From Hydrurus foetidus (lineage: Eukaryota), in contig UYFQ01000369.1 in assembly GCA_900617105.1 (NCBI GenBank), forward strand, positions 1-59,619: a stretch of DNA of 59,619 nt, written 5' to 3'. Position 1 is the first letter of the stretch. Each line of letters starts with the position of its first letter. The translations under genes and the position numbers were made by a program. Under the pieces are notes generated by a model that saw only the letters and a list, made by a program, of their open reading frames with translations, made no database searches and had not been told where the DNA came from. Positions 8,956 through 56,660 of the stretch are shown here, piece by piece.

Positions 8956-9005
8956 ATACTTACCTGTTCGTCGGATGTAGAGGATCAACCAGCTCTATAC
9001 CGGTA
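8956..9005 (+). pseudogene. U1: U1 snRNA 5' fragment interrupted at +50 by DNA transposon 1
   Basis: U1 sequence stops at ...CCGGTA and is followed by the transposon end TTACGACCGCAGAATAAAA. Confidence 0.9.
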
Positions 9006-9208
9006 TTACGACCGCAGAATAAAAGTAGCAGTTTCGCACTGAAATCGTGGACAAGGGGGGGTACACACTCACTTCGAAGTGTGGAAGGGTGGGGGTGCAC
9101 GACATGAATATAGTGAGAACAAAGAAGACCTCATCTAGCCTGAGCACTTCTTATCCCTGCTTAATGTCAGTACTCTCATCACTTTATTGCGGTTGAGTTC
9201 AATTTGCG

Positions 9209-10231
9209 ATGACGAAAGACAAATCTCATCGTCAACTATTCGTGTCAAAAGTTTTGAATGATCATTTTTCAGTGAAGGATGCAGCTATCCACTGTAATAT
9301 TTCTTACAACACTGGAAGAAATTGGATGAGGATGCTGAATCGCATTGGGAATTACTATCCTCTGCGACATCGAAGGTCTATCCCTGGTGTGATGTCCCTG
9401 GATCATCAGGAGATATTGCAGATGGTCATTAGCAATAACAGGATGGCCATGATTGACGAAATTACTCAGTCTATGAGTGAGGAAACTGGATTTCATTATT
9501 CACCTCGCCTCATAAGACAAGTAATGTCTCGCCATAAGTATGTTTCTCGGCTAGCTAACGAGTTATCACCTCTTGAGCGTGATAATGAGTTGAGACGCTA
9601 CTATCGAGAACAAGTCATGCATCCTGGTGGAAACTTTACGTCAACTCAACTAGTTTTTGTTGACGAATGTTCGAAGAAACTGGGGAATGCGACAAGAAAA
9701 AGAGCATGGCGTGTCAAAGGCGACAAAGTCTCATTGCCTGTTATTCATTCCGGAAGTGGTAATGCAGCTTCATTGATAGCTTCAATGACTGTTCGAGGTA
9801 TTCAATCGGTCTCTGTCATTGATGTGGTAGAGGAAGGAAATGTAAACGGAGATCGCTTCATGGAGGCTTTTGTCAATGACATATTGGTTTACTGTGAGCC
9901 TTATCCTGGTCGTTGTTCTGTCATTGTTATGGATAATGCTGCGGTTCACATGAAATTATTGATTTCAGCAGCTTGTCAGGAGAGAGGAGTCATTGTCATT
10001 TATCTCCCACCTTATAGTTTTGATTTCAATCCTATTGAGCTCGTTTTTAATACAGCCTTGTCTAAATTGTTGAAGGTCTATGGTAGAACTCTCCTTCCTC
10101 CCAACTCTAAAATAGGTGATTTATTTAGAGATTGCCTCCTGAATTGTTTGACACCTGATAAAGCATGTAACATGTTTGAAAAGTGTCATATCTCTGTTTC
10201 TGTCCAAGATAGAGAATGGGCAAATGTGTAA
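9209..10231 (+). CDS. Tc1/IS630-family DD34E transposase
   Basis: N-terminal HTH-like region; LVFVDE...MDNAAVH...LPPYSFDFNPIE with 34 residues between the second D and the E. Confidence 0.93.
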   Translation: MTKDKSHRQLFVSKVLNDHFSVKDAAIHCNISYNTGRNWMRMLNRIGNYYPLRHRRSIPGVMSLDHQEILQMVISNNRMAMIDEITQSMSEETGFHYSPRLIRQVMSRHKYVSRLANELSPLERDNELRRYYREQVMHPGGNFTSTQLVFVDECSKKLGNATRKRAWRVKGDKVSLPVIHSGSGNAASLIASMTVRGIQSVSVIDVVEEGNVNGDRFMEAFVNDILVYCEPYPGRCSVIVMDNAAVHMKLLISAACQERGVIVIYLPPYSFDFNPIELVFNTALSKLLKVYGRTLLPPNSKIGDLFRDCLLNCLTPDKACNMFEKCHISVSVQDREWANV

Positions 10232-10268
10232 TTGTTATTTCCATTTTATTCTCATTATTTTTATGGTT

Positions 10269-10345
10269 AAGTCACCGCGATTTTTCAAACAATCACGGTG
10301 ACTTCTCAAAAAATCACGGTGACTTTTTTTGAATCACGGTGACTT
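10269..10345. repeat. Cluster of AATCACGGTGACTT motifs (4 copies)
   Basis: Inverted variant at 10269; direct copies at 10291, 10312 and 10332. Confidence 0.85.
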
Positions 10346-10885
10346 CTATTTTTCAATAACCGAACTACTATTACATTGCTATAGTAATGTAATTAATTGA
10401 AGTAGATGCAAAACCATTTTTCATTTTGATCCTAAAGTGACGTTTAATTTGAATTATAAATTTCACTATCGTGGATACCAGCCTATCAAATGTAACAATT
10501 GGATACCGCCGTCTAGTGGATAATCGACTCTCCTCGACTCCTTATTTTCTCAAGCCACGAAATATGATTTTTGTATCGTTGCTTTTGTTATATATTAATG
10601 TCAAACTATGATTATTTATTATCGATCATCATTATCATCACGCAAGTATATCTTATCATTGCGCTTACAAATTACTCTAGGATACTATTTTCCTATCGTT
10701 TATTGATGCAGTAATTCATATCGCACTGTGTATTCATATCATTATATATGTCACGAAAGAAGATTTTATTAGTGCGCCGAAATACCATATGAATCGAGTA
10801 GAATTACGATTTGTATCATGACCGATTTGTTTCATCATTTACATTGAATTATGTGCACCTTTTATTTAGTATTTTTTGCCCTAAT

Positions 10886-12998
10886 CTATAAGGACTCTGG
10901 AGTTAGTAATAGATCATCGACAATGAAAGAATCAATATTCAGTTTATATGTTTTAATTTTCTTTAAACTCTTAGTTGTCATATCATGATTTGGATCAACA
11001 ATCTGAATTCTGTCTTTGTAAATACCGACAACCACCACATAGTCTCCTTCCTTTAATTTAAAAGTGTTTTCTTTCTCCACCGGTTTTGTTATTTTCCATT
11101 CGTGTGTGCCCGTTTCTCCACTGAATTTTCTATTTAACGATGCTGTTTTCATAATATTAAATTCTATTTCAATTTGAGTATTGTCCTGTTGTTTGATTGA
11201 TGCCGTACCGATTTTACAGTTGTTGCCAATATCAAGATCATATTCATTCATTGACAATTGATTTGATTTTCTAGCATTTGTTATTTTTTTAGCTTTTGCA
11301 ATTACGTCATCATTTTCATGGATATAGGTAGTAAATGTATTATAATTATCTTCGTCAAAAATTTGTTCCTCTGACTTTGTAATAGGTGTAACAAACATTG
11401 ATGATGACGACGAGGAGGAGGAAGAGGAGGAAGAGGAGGAGGAACAGGAGGGATTTCTGTTTTTATTCCGGATAAATGCTCGGTCAAGAAGAGATTTTCC
11501 TATATTATTGTTTTTTTGAATGTCGATGATTGATGGAAAATTCATTTTCCAATTTACTTTTAATTGAGCTTTAATTTCTAACTTATCTTCTATTAGATTG
11601 ACAGGAGTCAAATCATCGGGGAAACAGGATACACCATGATTGTATGATCCTGCAAAAATTATTGATAAAACATCAGCTAAATGTTTGCTCTGTGGATCTT
11701 TTATTCCAGTATACTCTGATTCTTGGGAGTCAAATTTAAAAAGACGTTCAATATCTTTACTTTTAATTTCCTTCAATTCTTCGAATATTGCTATCTTTTT
11801 ATTTTGCACATTTTTTGTATTCATATTATTTGCTAATACATTTGCTCCATGATATCCGTTAGCCGCAATTCTATTTTTTGCATTTTTAAATGAATAGTTG
11901 TCTATGTTAGGATCATCTTCAAAATCATCTTGACCCCATTGCATTAGTAGGGGTTTTTTACTATGGGGAAACCACGTGTCATCTAAACCGTAAAAATAAG
12001 TTTGACCTACGGTTATTGATGTTCCTATGCTAGCACCATCTGCTGCCCTAATAATATTAAATTAAACTATCTTAATTTTTCATGTTTTTAAAGTAATAAA
12101 GTGAAGCTAAAGATATTCATTTATTCAACTTACTTTAAATACCCAGCCAGATCGTTGTGAATATTCATCAAAGAGGAGGAATTGATGAAGATGTTTCTTG
12201 GATCATTATATTCCTCATTTAATTTCATTTGCAAGTGATAACGCGCTTGTGGACTTATTTTTGGATGTCCTTTGACCTACAAAGAAGCAATAACAATTTT
12301 GAGAGTCCATTCAAATACTCGTCAAACTATATTTCATATAGTTATTTGGACATACCTCCATTAGTCCAACACTAATAGTCCAAGGTGCTACGAAGATTTG
12401 TTTATTTGAAAATTTCGATGGAAAGACATCTAATTGGTCATCGACATCAGGTACTCGAATGAGTGTCTTCTTTAGGAAAAAGAATGGACCCGAAGTACAG
12501 TACTGCAATAGATAAATTGATAAATAAATTGATAATTAAGTTTTAAGTAAATGCGTGTATACACGAATTTGAAAATCTTACATTGTATTCGGGATTATTT
12601 GTATTCGACAATTTGCTAGAATTTTGAGGATCACTTCCTACTTTGATTTGGTTAAGTACGTTTCGAGCCAACTCCCCAAAATGACTTATAACCAAACTGT
12701 GCAAGACGCTTGCATTTATCGTTGGGGGCTCAATATTGTTTCGGGCGTCGTCCATATCAATTCTAGAGAGGTATCTGCCTGATTGGTTTAGTTCAATCTT
12801 TAAGCTTTTCTTTGTTTGAGAAAATGCCAATGTTTCTTTATTTACTGAGATGATATACACAGTGATTGTCAGTTTCCCATCCGTGGATGGCATTATGATA
12901 TCTTCATCTCTCCTTCTTTTTCGTGGAGCGATGACAACAACGTCGGTGTTGGTTTCCTCTTCAATGATAACATCGGGTACAGATGGAAAGTCACTCAT
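10886..12998 (-). CDS. Multi-exon accessory protein of transposon 1, unknown function
   Basis: ORF pieces 12543-12998, 12311-12508 and 10886-11944 are joined by GT-AG introns (e.g. ~12503-12581, GTAAG...TTGCAG). NLS-like PRKRRR. Homologous to 43342-45527. Confidence 0.8.
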
Positions 12999-13119
12999 TT
13001 TTGATGAGGCTCTGAAGCATACTGCGACGATTTAAAACTGTGATCAGTGACCGAACAAGAGGAATGTTAGGATTTGACATTTTGAACGGACTTTAATGTC
13101 AACTTTGACAGCAACACTC

Positions 13120-13181
13120 GTCACCGTGATTGAAAAAGTCACCGTGATTTTGGTCCTAAAACCGCAAAAGTCACCGTGATT
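13120..13181. repeat. Cluster of (AA)GTCACCGTGATT motifs (3 copies) in the divergent promoter region
   Basis: Copies at 13120, 13136 and 13168; reverse complement of the 10.3-kb motif. Confidence 0.85.
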
Positions 13182-13243
13182 GTCGCTGAACCCTCGCACG
13201 AATCATGCTCAGAGGATGAGTCACCTTATCTCACATATTCACG

Positions 13244-14083
13244 ATGAGTAAATGTGAAGCGGACGTCGATGGTGAACCCTGTGGAAAGGAGAAGCACATA
13301 CAGCCAAATGGTCAAATCAGAGCATTGTGCAAAATTCATTTCATGGAGAAAAACCAAATGAGAAAAAGGCAATTAAAACTGACCTTGTCAATGGAGCATC
13401 TCAAAGACAAAAGAGCCAAGGAAATTGACCAAGACAGGAAGAGAAGAATCCGATATGTGGCTTCAAGAGCAGCAACGTTGGCGGCGATCCCTGCGGCGAA
13501 CGTCAGAAGAATCGCTGAGCAGCTTGACAAGATCAAAAATGATCAGGAATATGTGATAATAGGAACTGTCATCGAGGATACATTGGATCTCCTGGATGTA
13601 GTCACTGAAGGAGAGATAGAGCCAATCACTTTCTCAGAAGAAGCTGGGCCACCTTTGAGAACAATGCAGAAAGTTAGCAATGAGAGAGACATCATCGGTG
13701 ATGTGCTCGAAGCGATAGAGATTGTTTTCCCAGGATGCAAAACTATCGGCGTCAAGCTCCTTAGATCAGAGAAAGGTAATCTAGCACAAAAACTTCATAC
13801 TGATCACGTGCCAGATCCAAAATCATCCAAAAGACTCAAAGACTTAAAAGTCTTCCACTACTCTGCATTGATAGCGTTGATGGAAAATACATTCTTGTAT
13901 GTTGGATCACTAGATGAAAAAGTACGCATTCCTAAATCAAGCATGCTTTTCTTCAGAGGTGATATGGTTCACGCAGGATCAGATTATCAGATTGAAAATT
14001 ACAGACTATTCATTTCTGCTTCATCCATTGACTATCCCTCAACTTTGGACGTTTCGATTAACTATCCCTCGACTGAAAAATGA
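13244..14083 (+). CDS. 2OG-Fe(II) dioxygenase (PhyH-like fold) with a putative N-terminal Zn finger
   Basis: QKLHTDH (HxD)...FFRGDMVHAG (distal H)...NYRLFIS (2OG-binding R). N-terminus has a C...C...CKIH pattern. Confidence 0.75.
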   Translation: MSKCEADVDGEPCGKEKHIQPNGQIRALCKIHFMEKNQMRKRQLKLTLSMEHLKDKRAKEIDQDRKRRIRYVASRAATLAAIPAANVRRIAEQLDKIKNDQEYVIIGTVIEDTLDLLDVVTEGEIEPITFSEEAGPPLRTMQKVSNERDIIGDVLEAIEIVFPGCKTIGVKLLRSEKGNLAQKLHTDHVPDPKSSKRLKDLKVFHYSALIALMENTFLYVGSLDEKVRIPKSSMLFFRGDMVHAGSDYQIENYRLFISASSIDYPSTLDVSINYPSTEK

Positions 14084-14262
14084 AACGTTACATCCCTCGA
14101 CTAAATAAAAAAAGGTTACATTCGAATGAAAGAAACTTTTACGGCAAACTTTCGAACAAGTCACACATGTAAAAGACATGAGGAGTTCAATGGCAATTGC
14201 AATTTGCGTGAAACAGTGAGAGAATAGCGTGGCCTATTGAAAGATTACCTTTAATACTAAAA

Positions 14263-14477
14263 AATCACGGTGACTTTTTCAGAAGTCACCGTGATTAGAA
14301 GAGCGGATACCTTAAAGACATCAGAATAGTCAACACAGTAGAAACAACAGACATCAGAAGAAGGTGAGTCATGGTTATTTTGTTAAGAGTAAAAAGCGGT
14401 AACCAAATATTGTAAATACAAAGCATAAATCACGGTGACTTTCAAAAAAGTTGATAAGTGATATGACACGGTGACTT
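14263..14477. repeat. Third cluster of AATCACGGTGACTT motifs
   Basis: Inverted pair at 14263/14283; further copies at 14428 and 14467 (partial). Confidence 0.8.
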
Positions 14478-14559
14478 GGCATTTCAATGGAGCTGATTGA
14501 ATAGAAAATGGGAAAGTACCTGCTCAAGATAAGTAATATATCGATTGAAATTTTTAACT

Positions 14560-15300
14560 TTTAGTTAAGACAAGACCACATCAGAAGGGTCAGAGCACGA
14601 AGAACTGTTGTTCCTATCATGATACGGCCTTGTCCGACTTCAAAATTGGGTTTCACCCGAATAAAATAATCAATTGATATTACAAATATTTCAAATCAAA
14701 AATGTAGCAGCAGCTAACATCAGACATTTTGTTGGCTAAACTGTCCGCGGTAAGTTTTAAAGAAATGTTGCGCATGGAGTTGTCATAAAGTAAATGCTCA
14801 TCAGCAGCACGAATGAATACACCAACAGCATGATACAGATTGCTTTGTTCCGTTAGCAATGATGCCGTATAATTTGAATCAATTCGTTCATACCGGTACG
14901 CACGCAATCTCTTCATCTGCTTCCGATGCGCATCATTATTCCACTTAGCTTTCCCAAAAGAATGTACTGACCAACACGACCATTCATTAGTTTATAAACA
15001 CTGGCACCATTGAACTTAGAGGTGCTATTTCACTTTTTTTACCCTTCGCCAAACACATTCAACATTGATGTTTCTGTAGATAAGTCTGATTTAGCCATCT
15101 AAGATATAAATTTACATCCAATCAGAAATGCCTTTGGTAACCTTCTGACATGGGTAGCAATTATGGTCTTCTTGCAAGATTCATCGACGACAATTCCCGT
15201 CCATCTGAAAGGGTAAGGAGATAATATGGAGAATTGCATCCAAAATTGAATGGGTTTGGCCTTAAATGCAATTTGATAATTGGATTCCTCAAAATCAGCT
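14560..15300 (-). CDS. Possible further transposon-borne gene (fragmented or spliced)
   Basis: ORF pieces 14680-14916 and 15099-15300 have protein-like composition. The 5' part is lost in the garbled region. Confidence 0.3.
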
Positions 15301-16124
15301 TTGGAGAGGAGTACACATCTCCCAAATAGTACAACAACACAAACAGTCATGCGTATTGCATTCCGGGATTCGCAACGGAATTTCTTTGTCATTGCCTTCT
15401 TTGCACCCTGACTTCTTTTACTCATTTTCACTTTCACAACAATCAAAACAAACAAGAATGCAAACTTGCAAAGATTTCGACCAATGTTCAACTTTGAATA
15501 TCAGACAATCGACAGTCGCGCAATTGCATGGATTAGACAAGTTGGAGATAGCATGATTGACATATACCTCATCGAAAGTGTATACATATCTGGTATGTAC
15601 ATATGATGCATATTAGACTTCTTGTGCACCCTCTGCGTCCTGATACTTCCTGTTCGTCTCTGTACTCTATTCCCAGTCTATACCGGTACGCGGAGCAAAC
15701 CATGGCATAACTGGTGCTTGTGATGCGTATTGCAGTCCGAAAGGATTCGCAACGGAATAATTTTTGTCATTGGGGTAGCGTTTACGCACCCCTTCCCTTC
15801 CCTTACCAACACAACACAACACACAAACAAAACAAAACAAAACCACACACATACTCACTATTCTACCCTACCTGCCAACTACATCAAATGAGTTACTGTT
15901 TACTCATTTCACATTACAATATCAATTACGCAATCAAGCAATGCAACTTGCAATCATCGATTAATTGACAATGTCGCGACGATGTGCATGATCTAGACAT
16001 CGATGTGGCGGCTAGCTATATTATGGAATATACCTCATTAGTCGAAATGTGTATATACACATCTGGTGTGTACATATGATGCATATTAGGACTGATACTA
16101 TTTTGCATCCCTCTTCGTCTCCTC

Positions 16125-16278
16125 ATACTTACCTGTTCGTCGGATGTAGAGGATCAACCAGCTCTATACCGGTACGCGGAGCAAACCATGGCATAACTGG
16201 TGCTTGTGATGCGTATTGCAGTCCGAAAGGATTCGCAACGGAATAATTTTTGTCATTGGGGTAGCGTTTACGCACCCC
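16125..16278 (+). ncRNA. U1: U1 snRNA (first intact copy of block B)
   Basis: Same sequence as the representative copy. Confidence 0.95.
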
Positions 16279-19200
16279 TTCCCTTCCCTTCCAACACAAC
16301 ACAACACAACACAAACAAAACAAAACAAAACCACACACATACTCACTATTCTACCCTACCTGCCAACTACATCAAATGAGTTACTGTTTACTCATTTCAC
16401 ATTACAATATCAATTACGCAATCAAGCAATGCAACTTGCAATCATCGATTAATTGACAATGTCGCGACGATGTGCATGATCTAGACATCGATGTGGCGGC
16501 TAGCTATATTATGGAATATACCTCATTAGTCGAAATGTGTATATACACATCTGGTGTGTACATATGATGCATATTAGGACTGATACTATTTTGCATCCCT
16601 CTTCGTCTCCTCATACTTACCTGTTCGTCGGATGTAGAGGATCAACCAGCTCTATACCGGTACGCGGAGCAAACCATGGCATAACTGGTGCTTGTGATGC
16701 GTATTGCAGTCCGAAAGGATTCGCAACGGAATAATTTTTGTCATTGGGGTAGCGTTTACGCACCCCTTCCCTTCCCTTCCCAACACAACACAACACAACA
16801 CAAACAAAACAAAACACACACACACTCACTATTCTACCCTACCTGCCAACTACATCAAATGAGTTACTGTTTACTCATTTCACATTACAATATCAATTAC
16901 GCAATCAAGCAATGCAACTTGCAATCATCGATTAATTGACAATGTCGCGACGATGTGCATGATCTAGACATCGATGTGGCGGCTAGCTATATTATGGAAT
17001 ATACCTCATTAGTCGAAATGTGTATATACACATCTGGTGTGTACATATGATGCATATTAGGACTGATACTATTTTGCATCCCTCTTCGTCTCCTCATACT
17101 TACCTGTTCGTCGGATGTAGAGGATCAACCAGCTCTATACCGGTACGCGGAGCAAACCATGGCATAACTGGTGCTTGTGATGCGTATTGCAGTCCGAAAG
17201 GATTCGCAACGGAATAATTTTTGTCATTGGGGTAGCGTTTACGCACCCCTTCCCTTCCCTTCCCAACACAACACAACACAACACAACACAAAACAAAACA
17301 AAACCACACACACACTCACTATTCTACCCTACCTGCCAACTACATCAAATGAGTTACTGTTTACTCATTTCACATTACAATATCAATTACGCAATCAAGC
17401 AATGCAACTTGCAATCATCGATTAATTGACAATGTCGCGACGATGTGCATGATCTAGACATCGATGTGGCGGCTAGCTATATTATGGAATATACCTCATT
17501 AGTCGAAATGTGTATATACACATCTGGTGTGTACATATGATGCATATTAGGACTGATACTATTTTGCATCCCTCTTCGTCTCCTCATACTTACCTGTTCG
17601 TCGGATGTAGAGGATCAACCAGCTCTATACCGGTACGCGGAGCAAACCATGGCATAACTGGTGCTTGTGATGCGTATTGCAGTCCGAAAGGATTCGCAAC
17701 GGAATAATTTTTGTCATTGGGGTAGCGTTTACGCACCCCTTCCCTTCCCTTCCCAACACAACACAACACAACACAACACAACACAAACAAAACAAAACCA
17801 CACACACACTCACTATTCTACCCTACCTGCCAACTACATCAAATGAGTTACTGTTTACTCATTTCACATTACAATATCAATTACGCAATCAAGCAATGCA
17901 ACTTGCAATCATCGATTAATTGACAATGTCGCGACGATGTGCATGATCTAGACATCGATGTGGCGGCTAGCTATATTATGGAATATACCTCATTAGTCGA
18001 AATGTGTATATACACATCTGGTGTGTACATATGATGCATATTAGGACTGATACTATTTTGCATCCCTCTTCGTCTCCTCATACTTACCTGTTCGTCGGAT
18101 GTAGAGGATCAACCAGCTCTATACCGGTACGCGGAGCAAACCATGGCATAACTGGTGCTTGTGATGCGTATTGCAGTCCGAAAGGATTCGCAACGGAATA
18201 ATTTTTGTCATTGGGGTAGCGTTTACGCACCCCTTCCCTTCCCTTCCCAACCAACACAACACAACACAACACAACACAAAACAAAACAAAACCACACACA
18301 TACTCACTATTCTACCCTACCTGCCAACTACATCAAATGAGTTACTGTTTACTCATTTCACATTACAATATCAATTACGCAATCAAGCAATGCAACTTGC
18401 AATCATCGATTAATTGACAATGTCGCGACGATGTGCATGATCTAGACATCGATGTGGCGGCTAGCTATATTATGGAATATACCTCATTAGTCGAAATGTG
18501 TATATACACATCTGGTGTGTACATATGATGCATATTAGGACTGATACTATTTTGCATCCCTCTTCGTCTCCTCATACTTACCTGTTCGTCGGATGTAGAG
18601 GATCAACCAGCTCTATACCGGTACGCGGAGCAAACCATGGCATAACTGGTGCTTGTGATGCGTATTGCAGTCCGAAAGGATTCGCAACGGAATAATTTTT
18701 GTCATTGGGGTAGCGTTTACGCACCCCTTCCCTTCCCTTCCCAACACAACACACACAACACAAACAAAACAAAACAACACACACTCACTATTCTACCCTA
18801 CCTGCCAACTACATCAAATGAGTTACTGTTTACTCATTTCACATTACAATATCAATTACGCAATCAAGCAATGCAACTTGCAATCATCGATTAATTGACA
18901 ATGTCGCGACGATGTGCATGATCTAGACATCGATGTGGCGGCTAGCTATATTATGGAATATACCTCATTAGTCGAAATGTGTATATACACATCTGGTGTG
19001 TACATATGATGCATATTAGGACTGATACTATTTTGCATCCCTCTTCGTCTCCTCATACTTACCTGTTCGTCGGATGTAGAGGATCAACCAGCTCTATACC
19101 GGTACGCGGAGCAAACCATGGCATAACTGGTGCTTGTGATGCGTATTGCAGTCCGAAAGGATTCGCAACGGAATAATTTTTGTCATTGGGGTAGCGTTTA

Positions 19201-22200
19201 CGCACCCCTTCCCTTCCCTTCCCAACACAACACAACACAAACAAAACAAAACCACACACACACTCACTATTCTACCCTACCTGCCAACTACATCAAATGA
19301 GTTACTGTTTACTCATTTCACATTACAATATCAATTACGCAATCAAGCAATGCAACTTGCAATCATCGATTAATTGACAATGTCGCGACGATGTGCATGA
19401 TCTAGACATCGATGTGGCGGCTAGCTATATTATGGAATATACCTCATTAGTCGAAATGTGTATATACACATCTGGTGTGTACATATGATGCATATTAGGA
19501 CTGATACTATTTTGCATCCCTCTTCGTCTCCTCATACTTACCTGTTCGTCGGATGTAGAGGATCAACCAGCTCTATACCGGTACGCGGAGCAAACCATGG
19601 CATAACTGGTGCTTGTGATGCGTATTGCAGTCCGAAAGGATTCGCAACGGAATAATTTTTGTCATTGGGGTAGCGTTTACGCACCCCTTCCCTTCCCTTC
19701 CCAACACAACACACAACACAAACACAAAACAAAACCACACACACACTCACTATTCTACCCTACCTGCCAACTACATCAAATGAGTTACTGTTTACTCATT
19801 TCACATTACAATATCAATTACGCAATCAAGCAATGCAACTTGCAATCATCGATTAATTGACAATGTCGCGACGATGTGCATGATCTAGACATCGATGTGG
19901 CGGCTAGCTATATTATGGAATATACCTCATTAGTCGAAATGTGTATATACACATCTGGTGTGTACATATGATGCATATTAGGACTGATACTATTTTGCAT
20001 CCCTCTTCGTCTCCTCATACTTACCTGTTCGTCGGATGTAGAGGATCAACCAGCTCTATACCGGTACGCGGAGCAAACCATGGCATAACTGGTGCTTGTG
20101 ATGCGTATTGCAGTCCGAAAGGATTCGCAACGGAATAATTTTTGTCATTGGGGTAGCGTTTACGCACCCCTTCCCATCCCTTCCCAACACAACACACAAA
20201 CACAAACAAAACAAAACCACACACACACTCACTATTCTACCCTACCTGCCAACTACATCAAATGAGTTACTGTTTACTCATTTCACATTACAATATCAAT
20301 TACGCAATCAAGCAATGCAACTTGCAATCATCGATTAATTGACAATGTCGCGACGATGTGCATGATCTAGACATCGATGTGGCGGCTAGCTATATTATGG
20401 AATATACCTCATTAGTCGAAATGTGTATATACACATCTGGTGTGTACATATGATGCATATTAGGACTGATACTATTTTGCATCCCTCTTCGTCTCCTCAT
20501 ACTTACCTGTTCGTCGGATGTAGAGGATCAACCAGCTCTATACCGGTACGCGGAGCAAACCATGGCATAACTGGTGCTTGTGATGCGTATTGCAGTCCGA
20601 AAGGATTCGCAACGGAATAATTTTTGTCATTGGGGTAGCGTTTACGCACCCCTTCCCTTCCCTTCCCAACACAACACAACACAACACACAAAACAAAACA
20701 AAACCACACACATACTCACTATTCTACCCTACCTGCCAACTACATCAAATGAGTTACTGTTTACTCATTTCACATTACAATATCAATTACGCAATCAAGC
20801 AATGCAACTTGCAATCATCGATTAATTGACAATGTCGCGACGATGTGCATGATCTAGACATCGATGTGGCGGCTAGCTATATTATGGAATATACCTCATT
20901 AGTCGAAATGTGTATATACACATCTGGTGTGTACATATGATGCATATTAGGACTGATACTATTTTGCATCCCTCTTCGTCTCCTCATACTTACCTGTTCG
21001 TCGGATGTAGAGGATCAACCAGCTCTATACCGGTACGCGGAGCAAACCATGGCATAACTGGTGCTTGTGATGCGTATTGCAGTCCGAAAGGATTCGCAAC
21101 GGAATAATTTTTGTCATTGGGGTAGCGTTTACGCACCCCTTCCCTTCCCTTACCAACACAACACAACACAACACAAAACAAAAACACACACACTCACTAT
21201 TCTACCCTACCTGCCAACTACATCAAATGAGTTACTGTTTACTCATTTCACATTACAATATCAATTACGCAATCAAGCAATGCAACTTGCAATCATCGAT
21301 TAATTGACAATGTCGCGACGATGTGCATGATCTAGACATCGATGTGGCGGCTAGCTATATTATGGAATATACCTCATTAGTCGAAATGTGTATATACACA
21401 TCTGGTGTGTACATATGATGCATATTAGGACTGATACTATTTTGCATCCCTCTTCGTCTCCTCATACTTACCTGTTCGTCGGATGTAGAGGATCAACCAG
21501 CTCTATACCGGTACGCGGAGCAAACCATGGCATAACTGGTGCTTGTGATGCGTATTGCAGTCCGAAAGGATTCGCAACGGAATAATTTTTGTCATTGGGG
21601 TAGCGTTTACGCACCCCTTCCCTTCCCTTACCAACACAACACAACACAACACAAACAAAACACACACATACTCACTATTCTACCCTACCTGCCAACTACA
21701 TCAAATGAGTTACTGTTTACTCATTTCACATTACAATATCAATTACGCAATCAAGCAATGCAACTTGCAATCATCGATTAATTGACAATGTCGCGACGAT
21801 GTGCATGATCTAGACATCGATGTGGCGGCTAGCTATATTATGGAATATACCTCATTAGTCGAAATGTGTATATACACATCTGGTGTGTACATATGATGCA
21901 TATTAGGACTGATACTATTTTGCATCCCTCTTCGTCTCCTCATACTTACCTGTTCGTCGGATGTAGAGGATCAACCAGCTCTATACCGGTACGCGGAGCA
22001 AACCATGGCATAACTGGTGCTTGTGATGCGTATTGCAGTCCGAAAGGATTCGCAACGGAATAATTTTTGTCATTGGGGTAGCGTTTACGCACCCCTTCCC
22101 TTTCCCTTACACAACACAACACAACACAACACAACACAAACAAAACAAAACCACACACATACTCACTATTCTACCCTACCTGCCAACTACATCAAATGAG

Positions 22201-28466: not shown

Positions 28467-28767
28467 TTCCCTTCCCTTCCATTACCAACACAACACAACA
28501 CAAACAAAACAAAACCACACACATACTCACTATTCTACCCTACCTGCCAACTACATCAAATGAGTTACTGTTTACTCATTTCACATTACAATATCAATTA
28601 CGCAATCAAGCAATGCAACTTGCAATCATCGATTAATTGACAATGTCGCGACGATGTGCATGATCTAGACATCGATGTGGCGGCTAGCTATATTATGGAA
28701 TATACCTCATTAGTCGAAATGTGTATATACACATCTGGTGTGTACATATGATGCATATTAGGACTGA

Positions 28768-29029
28768 TGTAGCCTTATTGCATTCCTAAGGGGATACAAT
28801 GTGTCTAGGTTAACTAGGTACAATAGGTATATTACGCCCAGATTCCACTTTTAGGTCTTAGTTCCACATATGACGTGAATGCACTTTAGCGTACACATCA
28901 CTTGTAGATACTCAACTGTAAAATACTAACACAAGTTTACTCCACCTATCCTTCCTTCCCTTGCCCACCGCTTGCATCAACCGACCACCACTTTTAGCTC
29001 CAACGTCCTAGGCCCCGCCCAAGACCACA
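28768..29029 (+). repeat. Gypsy A 5' LTR
   Basis: Direct repeat of 34234-34495. Confidence 0.95.
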
Positions 29030-29128
29030 ATATCGATATTTGGTCGATACCAAAGTTTTTTCGAGAGAAGTTCGTTTCTCCGCTCCATCAATTTTAAATC
29101 CATCACGTAATTCCGACAGTCGAAGACA

Positions 29129-34033: not shown

Positions 34034-34233
34034 CTTAATATATTTGAAACTTTATCCATGAGGATTCTCTCCTATTTTTTTTACCTACGGGTCTTTTTTG
34101 GAGAGTTTAGTCAGTAAAAGTCTGACATCATCGTTTCATCTATATCTCATATATATGTTTTACATATCTTTTCTTTTTTTTCATTTTTTTTGTATATCAT
34201 ATCAAAGATCTTCAAAAAAGGAAGAAGGGGTAG

Positions 34234-34495
34234 TGTAGCCTTATTGCATTCCTAAGGGGATACAATGTGTCTAGGTTAACTAGGTACAATAGGTATATTA
34301 CGCCCAGATTCCACTTTTAGGTCTTAGTTCCACATATGACGTGAATGCACTTTAGCGTACACATCACTTGTAGATACTCAACTGTAAAATACTAACACAA
34401 GTTTACTCCACCTATCCTTCCTTCCCTTGCCCACCGCTTGCATCAACCGACCACCACTTTTAGCTCCAACGTCCTAGGCCCCGCCCAAGACCACA
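34234..34495 (+). repeat. Gypsy A 3' LTR
   Basis: Follows the PPT; direct repeat of 28768-29029. Confidence 0.95.
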
Positions 34496-34528
34496 CTGAT
34501 ACTATTTTGCATCCCTCTTCGCCTCCTC

Positions 34529-34682
34529 ATACTTACCTGTTCGTCGGATGTAGAGGATCAACCAGCTCTATACCGGTACGCGGAGCAAACCATGGCATAA
34601 CTGGTGCTTGTGATGCGTATTGCAGTCCGAAAGGATTCGCAACGGAATAATTTTTGTCATTGGGGTAGCGTTTACGCACCCC
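34529..34682 (+). ncRNA. U1: U1 snRNA copy separated from its upstream promoter by Gypsy A
   Basis: Intact U1 sequence 33 bp downstream of the 3' LTR. Confidence 0.9.
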
Positions 34683-37600: not shown

Positions 37601-40600
37601 CTTCCCTTCCATTACCAACACAACACAACACAAACAAAACAAAACAAAACCACACACATACTCACTATTCTACCCTACCTGCCAACTACATCAAATGAGT
37701 TACTGTTTACTCATTTCACATTACAATATCAATTACGCAATCAAGCAATGCAACTTGCAATCATCGATTAATTGACAATGTCGCGACGATGTGCATGATC
37801 TAGACATCGATGTGGCGGCTAGCTATATTATGGAATATACCTCATTAGTCGAAATGTGTATATACACATCTGGTGTGTACATATGATGCATATTAGGACT
37901 GATACTATTTTGCATCCCTCTTCGTCTCCTCATACTTACCTGTTCGTCGGATGTAGAGGATCAACCAGCTCTATACCGGTACGCGGAGCAAACCATGGCA
38001 TAACTGGTGCTTGTGATGCGTATTGCAGTCCGAAAGGATTCGCAACGGAATAATTTTTGTCATTGGGGTAGCGTTTACGCACCCCTTCCCTTCCCTTCCC
38101 ACCCCAACACAACACAACACAAACAAAACAAAACCACACACATACTCACTATTCTACCCTACCTGCCAACTACATCAAATGAGTTACTGTTTACTCATTT
38201 CACATTACAATATCAATTACGCAATCAAGCAATGCAACTTGCAATCATCGATTAATTGACAATGTCGCGACGATGTGCATGATCTAGACATCGATGTGGC
38301 GGCTAGCTATATTATGGAATATACCTCATTAGTCGAAATGTGTATATACACATCTGGTGTGTACATATGATGCATATTAGGACTGATACTATTTTGCATC
38401 CCTCTTCGTCTCCTCATACTTACCTGTTCGTCGGATGTAGAGGATCAACCAGCTCTATACCGGTACGCGGAGCAAACCATGGCATAACTGGTGCTTGTGA
38501 TGCGTATTGCAGTCCGAAAGGATTCGCAACGGAATAATTTTTGTCATTGGGGTAGCGTTTACGCACCCTTCCCTTCCCTTCCATTACCAACACAACACAA
38601 CACAACACAAAACAAAAAAACCACACACATACTCACTATTCTACCCTACCTGCCAACTACATCAAATGAGTTACTGTTTACTCATTTCACATTACAATAT
38701 CAATTACGCAATCAAGCAATGCAACTTGCAATCATCGATTAATTGACAATGTCGCGACGATGTGCATGATCTAGACATCGATGTGGCGGCTAGCTATATT
38801 ATGGAATATACCTCATTAGTCGAAATGTGTATATACACATCTGGTGTGTACATATGATGCATATTAGGACTGATACTATTTTGCATCCCTCTTCGTCTCC
38901 TCATACTTACCTGTTCGTCGGATGTAGAGGATCAACCAGCTCTATACCGGTACGCGGAGCAAACCATGGCATAACTGGTGCTTGTGATGCGTATTGCAGT
39001 CCGAAAGGATTCGCAACGGAATAATTTTTGTCATTGGGGTAGCGTTTACGCACCCCTTCCCTTCCCTTCCATTACCAACACAACACAACACAAACAAAAC
39101 AAAACCACACACATACTCACTATTCTACCCTACCTGCCAACTACATCAAATGAGTTACTGTTTACTCATTTCACATTACAATATCAATTACGCAATCAAG
39201 CAATGCAACTTGCAATCATCGATTAATTGACAATGTCGCGACGATGTGCATGATCTAGACATCGATGTGGCGGCTAGCTATATTATGGAATATACCTCAT
39301 TAGTCGAAATGTGTATATACACATCTGGTGTGTACATATGATGCATATTAGGACTGATACTATTTTGCATCCCTCTTCGTCTCCTCATACTTACCTGTTC
39401 GTCGGATGTAGAGGATCAACCAGCTCTATACCGGTACGCGGAGCAAACCATGGCATAACTGGTGCTTGTGATGCGTATTGCAGTCCGAAAGGATTCGCAA
39501 CGGAATAATTTTTGTCATTGGGGTAGCGTTTACGCACCCCTTCCCTTACCAACACAACACAACACAAACAAAACAAAACCACACACACTCACTATTCTAC
39601 CCTACCTGCCAACTACATCAAATGAGTTACTGTTTACTCATTTCACATTACAATATCAATTACGCAATCAAGCAATGCAACTTGCAATCATCGATTAATT
39701 GACAATGTCGCGACGATGTGCATGATCTAGACATCGATGTGGCGGCTAGCTATATTATGGAATATACCTCATTAGTCGAAATGTGTATATACACATCTGG
39801 TGTGTACATATGATGCATATTAGGACTGATACTATTTTGCATCCCTCTTCGTCTCCTCATACTTACCTGTTCGTCGGATGTAGAGGATCAACCAGCTCTA
39901 TACCGGTACGCGGAGCAAACCATGGCATAACTGGTGCTTGTGATGCGTATTGCAGTCCGAAAGGATTCGCAACGGAATAATTTTTGTCATTGGGGTAGCG
40001 TTTACGCACCCCTTCCCTTCCCTTACCAACACAACACAACACAAACAAAACAAAATAAAACAAAACAAAACCACACACACTCACTATTCTACCCTATCTG
40101 CCAACTACATCAAATGAGTTACTGTTTACTCATTTCACATTACAATATCAATTACGCAATCAAGCAATGCAACTTGCAATCATCGATTAATTGACAATGT
40201 CGCGACGATGTGCATGATCTAGACATCGATGTGGCGGCTAGCTATATTATGGAATATACCTCATTAGTCGAAATGTGTATATACACATCTGGTGTGTACA
40301 TATGATGCATATTAGGACTGATACTATTTTGCATCCCTCTTCGTCTCCTCATACTTACCTGTTCGTCGGATGTAGAGGATCAACCAGCTCTATACCGGTA
40401 CGCGGAGCAAACCATGGCATAACTGGTGCTTGTGATGCGTATTGCAGTCCGAAAGGATTCGCAACGGAATAATTTTTGTCATTGGGGTAGCGTTTACGCA
40501 CCCCTTCCCTTCCCTTCCCTTACCAACACAACACAACACAAACAAAACAACACACACACTCACTATTCTACCCTACCTGCCAACTACATCAAATGAGTTA

Positions 40601-41823
40601 CTGTTTACTCATTTCACATTACAATATCAATTACGCAATCAAGCAATGCAACTTGCAATCATCGATTAATTGACAATGTCGCGACGATGTGCATGATCTA
40701 GACATCGATGTGGCGGCTAGCTATATTATGGAATATACCTCATTAGTCGAAATGTGTATATACACATCTGGTGTGTACATATGATGCATATTAGGACTGA
40801 TACTATTTTGCATCCCTCTTCGTCTCCTCATACTTACCTGTTCGTCGGATGTAGAGGATCAACCAGCTCTATACCGGTACGCGGAGCAAACCATGGCATA
40901 ACTGGTGCTTGTGATGCGTATTGCAGTCCGAAAGGATTCGCAACGGAATAATTTTTGTCATTGGGGTAGCGTTTACGCACCCCTTCCTTTCCCATCCCAA
41001 CACAACACACAACACAACACAACACAACACAAACAAAACAAAACCAGATCACACACACACTCACTATTCTACCCTACCTGCCAACTACATCAAATGAGTT
41101 ACTGTTTACTCATTTCACATTACAATATCAATTACGCAATCAAGCAATGCAACTTGCAATCATCGATTAATTGACAATGTCGCGACGATGTGCATGATCT
41201 AGACATCGATGTGGCGGCTAGCTATATTATGGAATATACCTCATTAGTCGAAATGTGTATATACACATCTGGTGTGTACATATGATGCATATTAGGACTG
41301 ATACTATTTTGCATCCCTCTTCGTCTCCTCATACTTACCTGTTCGTCGGATGTAGAGGATCAACCAGCTCTATACCGGTACGCGGAGCAAACCATGGCAT
41401 AACTGGTGCTTGTGATGCGTATTGCAGTCCGAAAGGATTCGCAACGGAATAATTTTTGTCATTGGGGTAGCGTTTACGCACCCCTTCCCTTCCCTTCCAT
41501 TACCAACACAACACAACACAACACACACAAACAAAACAAAACCACACACACACTCACTATTCTACCCTACCTGCCAACTACATCAAATGAGTTACTGTTT
41601 ACTCATTTCACATTACAATATCAATTACGCAATCAAGCAATGCAACTTGCAATCATCGATTAATTGACAATGTCGCGACGATGTGCATGATCTAGACATC
41701 GATGTGGCGGCTAGCTGTATTATGGAATATACCTCATTAGTCGAAATGTGTATATACACATCTGGTGTGTACATATGATGCATATTAGGACTGATACTAT
41801 TTTGCATCCCTCTTCGTCTCCTC

Positions 41824-41865
41824 ATACTGACCTGTTCGTCGGATGTAGAGGATCAACCAGCTCTA
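41824..41865 (+). pseudogene. U1: U1 5' fragment (variant ATACTGACCTG) interrupted at +42 by DNA transposon 2
   Basis: U1 stops at ...CAGCTCTA and is followed by the TIR. Confidence 0.9.
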
Positions 41866-42031
41866 TTACAACAGCAGAATAAAATGGCACTTTTTACCGA
41901 AAAAAAAACTCAGATGGACTGATGATGAACTGAGAACTTGGACCTCTTATATTTTGAGAGGTCGCTTCCGAGTTTGATTTCAACTTGACTTTCAGCTTGG
42001 TGATCTATTTCTTCATCCGGAATCCAGATCG

Positions 42032-43081
42032 ATGACACTTCTTCATTCAGAATCCACATCAATGACTCTTTGCCGGAGGTCTTTCTTAAAAAGATTTCTC
42101 GTCGACCACCGTCCCATGCGCTTGGCCTGTCATGAAGCTGATATTGGATATCGCACAGGTCGAAGATGGTTAGCAGAACATCGTTTAAATGGGAAAACGG
42201 CAGCTCTCAGAATTCGAAAGTCAATACCGGGCGTAATGTCACAGCGGGATCAGGATATCTTATTTGTTGTTGTCCACAACCATCCGACATACCAACATAG
42301 CGAGTATGCTGAGGAGTTGTACCGAGAATCAGGGCACGCTTATAGCACCCGTCAAATCAGACAGGTTATGAGTCGCCAAAATTTTGTCTTCAAACTGGCT
42401 AATCAGCAATCGCCCATAGAACGGGATTTAGAATTTCGACGATTTTGGAGGGAGCAAGTAATTTTTCCCGGTGGATTACTTAGGGCTGAACATCTGCTTT
42501 ACGTCGATGAGACGAACAAGAGAAACGGTGACTGTAATCGCAGTCGAGTCCATTGTGTAAGAGGTCAACTATTGCAAATTCCAGTGCGAGCAGGGAACAA
42601 GGGTCTCTCAGCAAGCATTATTGCTAGCATTTCTATCGAAGGCATCCAGAGTTGCAGTGCTGTCGACATAGCGCGCGATGGAAACGTTGATGCTGGCCTT
42701 TTTCTTGAGCTCTTCAAGCGTGATATTCTGGTCTTGTGTCAACCTTGGCCCGGAAAAAGATCTGTTATTATCTTAGACAATGCAGCAGTTCATATGAAAT
42801 ATCTCATAGATGCAGAGTGTGCTGCGCATGGTGTTCATGTGTTTTACTTACCACCTTATTCCTTCGATTATAATCCTATAGAACTAGCTTTTAATATTGC
42901 TAAGATGAAATTAAAACGTGACTACGGTCGTGGCATATTACCACTCAATGCGCGAATATGTGATTTATTTAGAGAGTCTATCAACACATGCATTACACCA
43001 GATGTAGCATGTAATATGTTCGAACACTGTTTTATACCTGTTACAGCCGAGGAACGAGATTGGGCCAATCGTGTAGGGTAG
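42032..43081 (+). CDS. Tc1/IS630-family DD34E transposase
   Basis: LLYVDE...LDNAAVH...LPPYSFDYNPIE; homologous to 9209-10231 along its length. Confidence 0.93.
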   Translation: MTLLHSESTSMTLCRRSFLKRFLVDHRPMRLACHEADIGYRTGRRWLAEHRLNGKTAALRIRKSIPGVMSQRDQDILFVVVHNHPTYQHSEYAEELYRESGHAYSTRQIRQVMSRQNFVFKLANQQSPIERDLEFRRFWREQVIFPGGLLRAEHLLYVDETNKRNGDCNRSRVHCVRGQLLQIPVRAGNKGLSASIIASISIEGIQSCSAVDIARDGNVDAGLFLELFKRDILVLCQPWPGKRSVIILDNAAVHMKYLIDAECAAHGVHVFYLPPYSFDYNPIELAFNIAKMKLKRDYGRGILPLNARICDLFRESINTCITPDVACNMFEHCFIPVTAEERDWANRVG

Positions 43082-43341: not shown

Positions 43342-45527
43342 TTATACTTCAATTATCAGAGGAGCAGTACACAGCACTTCAGGAATTCTAAAATAATCCA
43401 TGTTAACTCTGTACATCTGTGGTGAGCCTTCTGACAAGATGTCCGCCGGACCCACTATCTCAGTACAGCATGTAATTTTCTTGTTGATGTCAATCGAGAT
43501 AATTGACATAAAGAGACCAGCATATACTTTGATGTTCTCTGTTGCGATGTCCTTATAAAGCATCCACCTGTGAGTGCCTGGCAGGCAAGGGAATGTGACT
43601 GGCTCGCTGCAGGTTTCATCCAGATTGAACTCCATCGCGAGAGGCGATGTGCCTGGTATTAACAAAGAGCAGTATCCTCTATTGCCACTTTGCATTTGGT
43701 CCAGTACATAGTGATCTGTAACGTCAGCATTTTCGAAAAGCCTCTTAATCGTCTTCATTGGTGGAGTATCGCCAAGGTCCCGAATCGTCGAAGAAGAGTT
43801 GTCGAATAGGTCGTTGCCGCCTAAGTTTTTCTCATGCAATGGTGTTGTCGTTGTTGTCGATGAGAGAGTATCATAAAATGACGCGGCTGATTTGGATGAC
43901 GAGGTTTTCGGAGTAGCTGATTTCCCAGTCTTTTTCAAGAATCCACGTGTAAAAAGATATGTTGGGATTTCTTGATTTCTTTCCAAGTCGGCCAAAGTTG
44001 GGAACAATGCTTCGTAGTTCTCTTTCCAAGAGACGCGAGGAACAGGAGTCCCTCTTTCGTTGGCGCAACTCTCTCGCCTTACAAGGAAGGGATTTTGTCT
44101 GTCGTTACAGAAAGATTTTCCACCATTCTGTGACCCGGAGAAGATGACAGCAAGGCATTCGATATGCTGCTGGCCATTTCTCGCAGCGTCTTTCACAGTG
44201 GAGTACAAAGAATCCTCGGATCCAAGGTCCAGCAGCGTCATAAGAACCGTATGCTTGATATTAGCCAGTAAAGTGCTCATCATAGACTTGATGTCAACCA
44301 TTTCTGTCACTGTTAGCCTAGCGTCGTCTAATCTTTGCGCTGTCGCCTAATTAGATAATAACAATGAATGACAAAGGAAATGAAGTTAATAATTGCTTAA
44401 TTTGTCTCATACTGTGAAAAATGAAATACCTTCATTGATGCAATAGATTTATCTTTCGCAGCGTAAGTACTCACGAGCTGGGAAGTGACGCCAGCGGAAT
44501 TATTCAAGCGCCCCCAAAAGTCAGAACAAGGGAGATCCTTCAGGGGATACCATGAAATCGGGTACGTATACAATGTCAGTTGGGCATAGCTGACACTGGT
44601 AGCCGTCGAAACTGAATTTCCAGCCCTAATGAAATCAAATTTAAAAAAACTTTAAATGTGGTGCATTAGAGTAGAATTTACTGTGTTCGGGTCGAAACTA
44701 ACTTCATGTATTTCGGAATATCTGTGTTGCCCGTGTTAATTAGGGATTGGGAAGTTATGTCTCCCTCATTCGCATCTGAAAGCCGAATATACAGCTGTGA
44801 CTGTAGTTGCAGTGCTGGCAACGGCCGTAAGGTAGGGGTCCCCTGAAGCTAAAATGAACGTAACAGATTTTAGCAAAAGGGCTGATGTTAAATTGTCTTA
44901 GTCATGGCAGTGAAATATTTACCAGTAGTAGCCCAACAGCTGCATAGAATGGTGCCCCATATGATCCGGTTGAAAATCGATTTTTCCCGTACGTTGTTGG
45001 CTGTATCGAGAGAACGCTTGTAGCAGAGCATAATAAACGCACGCTATCATCAGCGTCAAAGAAAGGCCCTGAGAGATTGAACTACACATACGATTACAAA
45101 TTGCATTAGTCCTATGCGGTGAAGTTCACTCGTCCTTAAAAATTTAATTATTCTTCACCTTATAATCTGCGTGGCCGTCACCAACGAGACTATTTTCGGT
45201 GACCTCTCCATCACCCGAAGCAATTTTCTCCATTGTTCGATCAGCCAACTGACCAAAATATTTTACTACTAGGCTGTGTAGCCTCCCAGAAAGGATGGTT
45301 GGACTGGAGTTCGTGGGATTGGTAATATGCGCAACGGCAACCGGAATTTCAATTTCACGTGAGAAACGAGACTTCGTGAATGAGTCGGTTCCACCCTTCA
45401 GAACAATGCTGTGGACAGTAATAATCAGAGGCCCATCGTTAGGAGGTGATGCTACAGCGCGCGGCCTTTTCTTCACGACTGGTGCCTTCGTAGATACTGG
45501 ATTAAGGTCGATGTCCTCTTCTTCCAT
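43342..45527 (-). CDS. Multi-exon accessory protein of transposon 2, unknown function
   Basis: ORF pieces 45144-45527 and 43342-44310 plus small internal exons; NLS-like KKRPR; homologous to 10886-12998. Confidence 0.8.
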
Positions 45528-45667
45528 TTTGGTTCAAGAATGTGTTGTGTTTCACTCCACGAGAAGCCTCATCAACATCTCAGTCAATACTCCGACTTCA
45601 ATGTGTCGTCTCATTCCCACATTCTAGGAACCGGAATTTTTTCATGGCGAAGTGAATAATTTTTTTT

Positions 45668-47650
45668 TCATGCGAGGTCGAACCCGGAACTTCTACATGC
45701 AATTTGATACAGTAATAAAAATCGTGTCTTCAACTCTAACTTCCACGAAGCAGATAATCGCCTTTCATCAGTGCTGCTCTCTTGACGCTGTTCACTAACA
45801 CCCATCGCTATACTGCTTTGTACAGTGCCAACGTCACAGCCAGCAACACCTCCTAGTGCAGAGCCAAGCATAGTGCCTACCTCAGCATCGACTGGTGCAC
45901 CAACGTCACAGCCAGCAACACCTCCTAGTGCAGAGCCAAGCATAGTGCCTACCTCAGCATCGACTGGTGCACCAACGTCACAGCCAGCAACACCTCCTAG
46001 TGCAGAGCCAAGCATAGTGCCTACCTCAGCATCGACTGGTGCACCAACGTCACAGCCAGCAACACCTCCTAGTGCAGAGCCAAGCATAGTGCCTACCTCA
46101 GCATCGACTGGTGCACCAACGTCACAGCCAGCAACACCTCCTAGTGCAGAGCCAAGCATAGTGCCTACCTCAGCATCGACTGGTGCACCAACGTCACAGC
46201 CAGCAACACCTCCTAGTGCAGAGCCAAGCATAGTGCCTACCTCAGCATCGACTGGTGCACCAACGTCACAGCCAGCAACACCTCCTAGTGCAGAGCCAAG
46301 CATAGTGCCTACCTCAGCATCGACTGGTGCACCAACGTCACAGCCAGCAACACCTCCTAGTGCAGAGCCAAGCATAGTGCCTATCTCGGTCATCAATGCC
46401 GCATCGTTGATCTTCTCCTCCGCCACCGGACCCTCCTCCCCTCCAACTCACACACACGTCTCTCAGCTGCTGCATTCGCAGTCATCAATGCCGAGGTAGG
46501 GGAGTAAGATCGAATTCACATAGGCGTAATTTTCATTTTCAGGAGTGTCGCCGCAACGCAACCTCTAGAATAGGCACGACGCGGGCTGTACATCATAAAC
46601 ACTCTACGAGACCAAACGAACTTGCTCCTCAATAGAGGGACTGATTGCCGACTCATCGCATATTTCTTAAATTTTACAGGAAATCTTAATTGGCGTATTG
46701 GCAGTTATCATAGCTGTCCCTAATGAAAATGCAGATCATGATAATGATTAGGATTGGAATGTCGGGTGAAATAATCGAAGCCCATCAATGCTTGAGGATA
46801 CCTGAGTGTAAGGTTAGCTTTGGAATCAATTTATCCTTCGCAAATATTGCGAACCCTTCATCGCATATAGCCACGGTATGCAGGGAAGATGCCAATTGAA
46901 GACCAGAGAAGAATGACGACTGGAGCGGAGATAATTTGTCTTAGATTATGGGTTGAATGAAAAGCGTTATGATAAATGTGATGTTAAAAGAACAGCAGAA
47001 GGCAACCATTTTCTTCCTCCTCAGAGAGAGAATTCCCTTCGTCGATAATGTGTGATGGGCCGTCTGAGAGTTCGCCACTTCAAGATAGACAGCGCTTTTC
47101 AGATGTGATTAACACATTCAAAACCTGAGTGCTCGTTGAATTTCCACTCAGCAGAAATCAATTGATCTCTATGCAATACCTATGGTTACGGTGTCAAGTG
47201 TCCACAGAGAAGAGAGAATAGTGTAAATTCGTGAAGCTAAGAAATCGACGATAAAATAAGCAGGGTCGATTTGCTTTCATACAGTGATTTAACGAAATCT
47301 AATTGAGAGGAAAGCTGAAGCTTTGTCTCAGCACATCAGGCGCAGAAGAGTAGCTCCTCATTCGAGAGACTTCCAATATAGCATAACAAAGAGTCAACAA
47401 TAATCTCGAGGAAAAAATTCTGACTTCAGCTTCAAAATGGAAAGTGGCCAACCTGTCTTGAGCCAACCATCGACATTTGGATGAAGACCCGTGCCAATCC
47501 TGACTTTTTCAGCGCTCTTAATGACCTCAAACGATGTAGAAAGGAAATAGCCAGGATCAGAAAAATCGAATGACGACTGCCTAACGCAAAAAAAGATTTG
47601 GGGAGCTGTCAAGCAGCCGTAAACGCATACCTGGCAAATCAGTCATCCTA
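45668..47650 (-). CDS. Possible spliced or degenerate third gene of transposon 2
   Basis: Short minus-strand ORFs (47394-47612, 45668-46426) with GT/AG-bounded spacers. No recognisable domain, and some stops. Confidence 0.3.
45824..46384. repeat. 72-bp minisatellite, ~7.7 near-perfect copies
   Basis: Unit CCAACGTCACAGCCAGCAACACCTCC... starts at 45828, 45900, 45972 ... 46332; open reading frames on both strands. Confidence 0.95.
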
Positions 47651-47855
47651 GAAAGAGCGCTGGTGGTCCAGGGCTGAGAGGTCGCCGAACTTTTGGACTT
47701 CTGATATGAATTGCAGATAGCGATTGTGAAGAGTTTGGAATCATCACGATTGCTTTGGGAACGTACCACTTTCTGTGCGTTGTACAACGGTTTTCATCAT
47801 CAGTCCATCTGAGTTTTTTCGGTAAAAGGTGCCATTTTATTCTGCTATTGTAATA

Positions 47856-56649: not shown

Positions 56650-56660
56650 AGAGTTCTGGA

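Follow-up and report, generated by a model that had tools for sequence, protein, structure and literature searches.

Background and summary

In the window (the whole stretch of 59,619 nucleotides that was analysed), two diverged DNA transposons, here called E1 and E2, each reach with their left end into a U1 snRNA gene of a tandem array, and together they represent a two-gene lineage that is real, has apparently not been described before, shows a target bias extending past TA and is truly present in U1. Judged from sequence, the transposases and terminal inverted repeats (TIRs) place both elements in the IS630/Tc1/mariner superfamily. The main transposon tools come from Tc1/mariner, whose elements insert nearly at random at TA dinucleotides. 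E1 and E2 probably insert preferentially, though not only, in U1, and our preferred reading, to which we give a probability of about 0.5, is that the transposase reads an extended target motif and that the many-copy U1 array is thereby a preferred, non-exclusive site.

If true, a GC-containing extended motif or a preference for snRNA genes would join the few target-biased DNA transposons, with Dada, Pokey and CryptonV as the target-specific eukaryotic examples (PMC8869645), and the family would give compact transposases for studies of target choice. A literature search, which did not cover Repbase, supplements or subscription journals, returned no report of IS630/Tc1 elements in snRNA genes, and the accessible parts of PMC11544213 and PMC13565253 hold nothing on snRNA targeting. 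The features that we describe are collected in Table 1.

Table 1. Coordinates of the U1 array and of the features of E1 and E2 in the window.
Feature	Position	Strand	Remarks
U1 snRNA tandem array	4583..41865	+	~490-bp units, ~25 kb minus inserts
E1 target TA	9004..9005	+	U1 +49/+50 (U1 start 8956), at end of palindrome TACCGGTA
E1 left end	9006..9044	+	putative ~39-bp TIR; contigs branch behind 9044
E1 transposase	9209..10231	+	340 aa, HTH + DD34E, open frame
E1 accessory gene	10886..12998	-	several exons, without known domain
E1-only ORF	13244..14083	+	280 aa, HTD...H motif
E1 right part	14400..15680	.	error-rich consensus running into degraded U1 unit
E2 left target TA	41864..41865	+	U1 +41/+42 (U1 start 41824); intact U1 reads TA-TACCG
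E2 left TIR	41866..41929	+	64 bp
E2 transposase	42032..43081	+	349 aa, DD34E, open frame
E2 accessory gene	43342..45527	-	several exons, without known domain
E2-only 75-bp tandem repeat	45786..46499	+	open Pro/Thr/Ser-rich frame; PT repeat E 1.5e-6
E2 right TIR	47793..47853	-	61 bp, 2 mismatches to left TIR
E2 right flank TATACAG	47854..47860	+	native TA of 5'-truncated gypsy integrase (in-frame IQRILNS), non-U1

Transposases and gene content

Both transposases exceed the Pfam DDE_3 and NCBIfam IS630 cut-offs (E1: DDE_3 E 1.8e-20, NF033545 IS630 108 bits; E2: DDE_3 E 7.7e-17, NF033545 104 bits), carry the motif YSFD(F/Y)NPIE and are 49% identical to each other. A 19-nt end motif occurs three times against 0.05 expected. 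The original prediction of two clearly diverged elements with shared ends and a DD34E transposase in each was thus borne out. For the transposase profile, no PDB chain was found at E 0.01.

The transposase search returned 56 proteins at E <=1e-20 from 3475 candidates, 50 of them at 42-99% identity and 6 at 28-38%. A quick IQ-TREE tree was built from 65 rows, comprising the 2 window proteins, 44 close hits (the first 46 minus 2 under 230 aa), 4 distant hits and 15 locus pieces; P0047-50, P0052 and P0056, as well as TBE, Tec and named Tc1 references, stood outside it. All 46 close rows group in a single clade (SH-aLRT 100) in which E1 and E2 fall into different subclades, and the nearest database relatives of this long-stemmed clade are at 28-38% identity. 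The spacing of 34 was found in 42 of the 43 clade rows with the motif read, and Y(S/T)F(D/N)xNPIE in all 43 where the pattern matched, as well as in P0051 and P0053 outside the clade. The motif had been called atypical, and it does differ from the YSPD of the outgroup transposases; it is nevertheless a clade marker one residue off the usual motif and common to the sister group. The tree also supports the earlier view of E1 and E2 as an old multi-gene IS630/Tc1 DD34E family.

The accessory gene sits after the transposase in both elements, the two copies are homologous (tblastn E 1e-12 and 8e-11) and one intron position matches. Relatives of the protein numbered 14 in a word search and 65 in a profile search, and the 600-aa protein P0087, homologous to the E1 gene (E 1e-30 and 4e-11), maps to accessory exons of both E1 and E2. 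Searches of Pfam, PDB sequences and folds gave no named match, and a model covering the last exon only reached a best fold Z of 3.9. An Atlas hint to a PLD nuclease, a family with an HKD motif and a PLD fold, scored 0.84, under the lead level of 0.9, and Pfam gave no hit, so the assignment is tentative at best. The protein probably assists or regulates transposition as a cofactor or regulator, and the gene, kept with its introns across subfamilies diverged to 49% identity, represents an uncharacterised protein family.

A common gene layout had also been proposed, and this holds for the first two genes, whereas the third regions of E1 and E2 differ and gave no cross-match. The HTD...H motif of the third ORF in E1 is one that we take to be 2OG-Fe(II) oxygenase-like, after the HxD...H triad that such enzymes carry in a double-stranded beta-helix fold. 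The ORF has 5 homologs, no Pfam match, a best relevant PDB row at E 1.4 and a model with pLDDT 45 and no fold match, and an oxygenase identity is confirmed by none of these libraries (Pfam, PDB, fold). The ORF does belong to the element, since the protein P0049 fuses the transposase N-terminus (9209-9592) to the C-terminus of the third ORF (13877-14077), at 96% identity each.

P0049 is itself an internally deleted E1 copy, and the lowest contig depth of E1 lies across the accessory gene. In a poly(A) RNA run (X21), of which 6% was sampled, almost no reads fell within E1, a scarcity to which we attach no meaning. Between the E1 genes, at 10264-10345, 13120-13185 and 14261-14460, there are clusters of 12-14 base repeats (AATCACGGTGACTT) in both orientations, which may serve as binding sites or form a MITE-like structure inside the element.

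The U1 array and the element junctions

The window comes from a eukaryote with spliceosomal introns and holds 45 Rfam U1 matches; 51 U1 units have an intact 5' end, two of which are interrupted by the E1/E2 family. Four inserts lie in the array, namely a copia element at its left edge, E1, a gypsy element and E2, at which the array ends. Two degraded or truncated U1 units lie directly left of E1 (8150-8830), through true decay or assembly error.

Both left ends lie in U1 in the same orientation at sites 8 bp apart, with U1 clean up to the element for 50 bases at E1 and 42 bases at E2, and a TA is present at all three visible junctions. Neither element retains both original flanks, and because the right flank of E2 is gypsy, there is no case of a U1 gene interrupted by an element with the duplicated TA on either side of it. 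The proposed same-orientation insertions at +49 and +41 were therefore confirmed for both left ends, but a completely split U1 was found in neither case. At least five contigs of the isolate run X1 depart from E1 at 9044 and at least one contig of the isolate run X2 begins at 9015, among the matches listed. The Illumina contigs also contain the 3 extra A of the E2 left TIR, and gypsy contigs match the window from 47854 on.

The size of about 6 kb that had been assigned to both elements is upheld for E2 (41866-47853). For E1, an end near 15687 and hence a 6-kb size are unverified, since a search of the window that tolerated 3 mismatches found no right TIR, the Illumina contigs have many indels across 14400-15322, and a degraded U1-like unit follows at 15330-15680. 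An interpretation of 15560-15700 as a blend of U1 and the E1 right TIR found no support (434 of 1000 shuffles scored equally well). A 12-base match between the E1 interior (14890) and U1 +42 to +53 has a chance probability of 0.076, and the Illumina contigs depart from it at 3 positions and by 2 indels in or beside it; we see no guide-like element there.

These features bear on the possibility that the long-read assembly, noisy in a repeat array, wrongly joined the sequence at the gypsy junction or at either or both of the U1 junctions. Degraded units flank E1 on both sides, indels relative to the Illumina contigs are frequent, the gypsy ORFs of the window carry frameshifts, and no contig bridges any of the three window junctions among the matches listed. 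All three junctions, however, consist of exactly a TIR tip plus TA, which is rare for random mis-joins, and the runs of clean U1 before both left ends also speak for real insertions; we regard mis-joining as very improbable.

The clustering had been presented as occurring despite many other TAs in each unit. A U1 unit does contain 38 TA sites, yet two random TAs of 38 would lie within 8 bp with a probability of 0.06, which falls to 0.03 if the orientation must also agree; this is suggestive of non-random insertion but not decisive. The modest odds leave room for the array as a general sink in which TA-inserting mobile DNA was caught, the array being redundant, transcribed and accessible at fixed spots set by promoter factors. 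Copia (-31) and gypsy (-33 to -30) insertions in the same array agree with this, as do distant relatives of the same layout at varied non-RNA sites. We consider such a sink improbable in view of the flanks described below.

Flanking sequences and a probable target motif

Further flanks of E2-type ends were read from two sediment metagenomes of one study (X3 and X5) and from the deep isolate runs X1 and X2; for the E2 right end, the contigs considered were the best 32 of 218 pieces and the best 24 of 36 loose-end rows. In X3, two contigs cover the E2-type TIR tip at depths of 3.73 and ~2.1, which sum to the 5.83 of the bin, and in X5 one contig does so at a depth of 4.87. All three match TA followed by TAC and then depart into non-U1 sequence, with two distinct flanks. 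The X5 flank reads TATACCG with non-U1 beyond. A mixture of this flank and a second one is consistent with the X3 consensus (shuffle p 0.0003), with which a U1 continuation is incompatible, assuming alphabetical tie-breaking. Together with the gypsy site in the window there are three distinct non-U1 flanks of E2, all beginning with TATAC. In non-array DNA (~34 kb), only 81 of 4591 TA sites (1.8%) continue with TAC and five with TACCG, and +41 is the sole TA of the 38 in the U1 unit with TACCG directly after it. A sink for mobile DNA leaves the TATAC at all three flanks unexplained.

Because E2 copies outside U1 adjoin the same short motif, U1 appears favoured and not exclusive. A preference beyond bare TA, as had been proposed for the family, is accordingly upheld for E2-type ends, from which all the motif evidence comes, none of the three distinct non-U1 flanks being from E1. 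The E1 site agrees with the E2 motif at 2 of 10 flanking positions and adjoins TACCG on the opposite strand. The proposal of a retained, Dada-U1-like U1 target, on the other hand, was not borne out: the three X3 and X5 flanks that are legible beyond 10 bases are non-U1, the right flank in the window is gypsy, and E1 and E2 each sit at a TA of their own.

In the isolate runs, at least four end contigs, of right and left type, read TATAC plus five letters, and one X1 end contig (record 3, among the matches listed) continues from TA into 20 unlike letters; all of these may represent U1, read in one orientation or the other, or different DNA. Neither TIR has a multi-contig loose end beside it in X1 or X2, among the matches listed, and in these deep contigs the E2 ends share flanks rather than scatter. 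Assuming that 30-base overlaps were counted, this argues against many unique TA-only sites; it agrees with flanks that are shared and repeated, for example U1, and a sink would not account for so few unique flanks at the TIRs.

The same data bear on near-strict, Dada-like targeting of U1 at +41 to +50, perhaps via the accessory protein, in which case the non-U1 flanks would result from one-ended moves or deletions. That elements of different subclades each reach into U1, with ends 8 bp from one another, speaks for it, as do the shared flanks in X1 and X2, where record 3 may be U1 upstream and the TATAC-plus-five ends may be downstream U1 sequence in one orientation or the other. About half of the X3 depth entering the TIR is unexplained by the flanks, and links to high-copy U1 may have been pruned; Dada copies, too, have one-sided non-target flanks (PMC3706591). 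Against strict targeting stand the non-U1 sequence in every contig with a readable flank, the use of different TAs by E1 and E2, and an occupancy of 2 of 51 units in a family with at least 44 other transposase clusters. Moreover, among the best 20 of 105 rows, no site in U1 +1 to +50 has two or more departing contigs. We hold this reading to be rather unlikely. Equally doubtful to us is that E1 and E2 are the first IS630/Tc1 lineage to have evolved an aimed U1 insertion, kept since the deepest split of the 46-member clade, with a 340-aa transposase guided to its target by the conserved ~600-aa accessory protein.

In the motif-based reading that we prefer, the transposases would prefer a TA within a longer motif, for E2 TA-TAC and at best TA-TACCG, and U1 would offer this motif in many copies, making the array a favoured and non-exclusive target. 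The transposase would read or bend the flanking bases directly, and insertion would proceed by cut-and-paste with duplication of the TA. E2 would first have entered U1 at +41; its right end would later have moved one-endedly to TATACAG in the gypsy that lies downstream, with loss of the remaining array and of the 5' half of that gypsy. A gypsy that lacks its 5' half and an array that stops there would fit such a one-ended move with adjacent deletion. A 7-base motif alone would give U1 a small share of sites, so that two subfamilies in a 25-kb array may need more than this. The TATAC(CG) could also be a U1 leftover after later deletions, which would count against the motif model.

Close relatives were further sought in other assemblies. 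Metagenome contigs gave 59 loci, all at 24-50% best-segment identity, and genome contigs 16 loci, all distant; viral contigs gave no relatives by protein or TIR pattern. Across all 59 metagenome loci there was no U1 match under E 0.4, and in the 20 of them that were scanned there was no Rfam match. On the question whether homologues sit in snRNA genes or elsewhere, the distant relatives with the same layout are at varied non-RNA sites.

Over the TIR tip (47824-47853), X1 has ~1,680 depth units besides the three contigs among the matches listed, which may point to a larger family, sibling or non-autonomous, whose ends resemble those of E2.

Comparison with known elements

With IS630/Tc1/mariner elements, E1 and E2 share a transposase with HTH and DD34E, TIRs and a TA at each junction seen. 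They differ by the intron-containing accessory gene, by YSFD in place of YSPD and by forming a long-stemmed clade of their own, and E2 also by its length of ~6 kb and its apparent motif beyond TA.

To our knowledge, no such accessory gene is known from Pokey, the piggyBac-type element of Daphnia 28S rDNA. Pokey is nevertheless similar as a TIR-bearing DDE element found at a specific spot of a multicopy RNA array and elsewhere, and E2 resembles it with ends both inside U1 (window) and outside U1 (window, X3, X5). Pokey inserts within its array and outside it (PMC4912750); it belongs to another superfamily, and its target in 28S rDNA is TTAA (PMC13565253). From this comparison, E1 and E2 would behave more like Pokey than like Dada.

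Dada-U1 is likewise a DNA transposon of ~5-11 kb in U1 genes. Dada elements encode a MuDR/hAT-like DDE protein of ~1400 aa with C/DxxH and zinc fingers, have no TIRs, and produce a 6-7 bp target duplication at one fixed site in a small-RNA gene, in which each copy has one end or both (PMC3706591). In contrast, E1 and E2 have IS630-type proteins of 340-349 aa and occupy two sites, and E2 has TIRs of 61-64 bp at TA. Membership in Dada was rejected on account of the transposases, TIRs and TA.

The original prediction treated a long, multi-gene element as unusual for this superfamily, a claim that loses weight: TBE and Tec of ciliates carry three ORFs, a DD34E transposase and TIRs (PMC7325037), and 3-9 kb distant relatives exist. 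E2, however, has 61-64 bp TIRs without telomere repeats, unlike the telomere-like tips of TBE and the ~700-bp TIRs of Tec, and no zinc-finger or kinase (TBE) or recombinase (Tec) Pfam domain was present in the E1 and E2 ORFs scanned. Extended target preferences have a parallel in Sleeping Beauty, which has an extended palindromic target consensus that single residues shift or sharpen (PMC8934666).

Of the 13 distant loci that we looked at, seven hold TIR elements of 3-9 kb (L005, L008, L012, L021, L022, L023 and L032). Like E1 and E2 they have the transposase near the left end, a long multi-ORF body and TA-like ends; they differ in being 28-35% identical, in having YSPD where read and in their TIRs. 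None of the seven matched the accessory genes, and the flanks scanned held no RNA gene. Five of them are 5-9 kb long (L008 640-9541, L022 10-8248, L023 65-8291, L032 1-8264 and L012 19-4972), with intron-containing IS630/Tc1 transposases, several further ORFs and varied sites, and apparently form a separate multi-gene lineage.

Other mobile DNA in the window

The copia element at 4582/4583 adjoins a U1 unit at -31, with its 5' LTR on the minus strand and a PBS present. The gypsy element, a chromovirus at 28764-34499, has aligned 261-bp LTRs that are 100% identical and a duplication of CTGA at U1 -33 to -30. That two LTR superfamilies lie at most 3 bp apart at the U1 promoter suggests another hot spot for insertion there. 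Beyond E2, the 5'-truncated gypsy at 47854-57600 consists of an integrase end and LTR, and within this LTR a copia element is nested (~49046-57413) with LTRs that are 99.4% identical and a duplication of TGTAT; a further copia fragment occupies 57611-59619.
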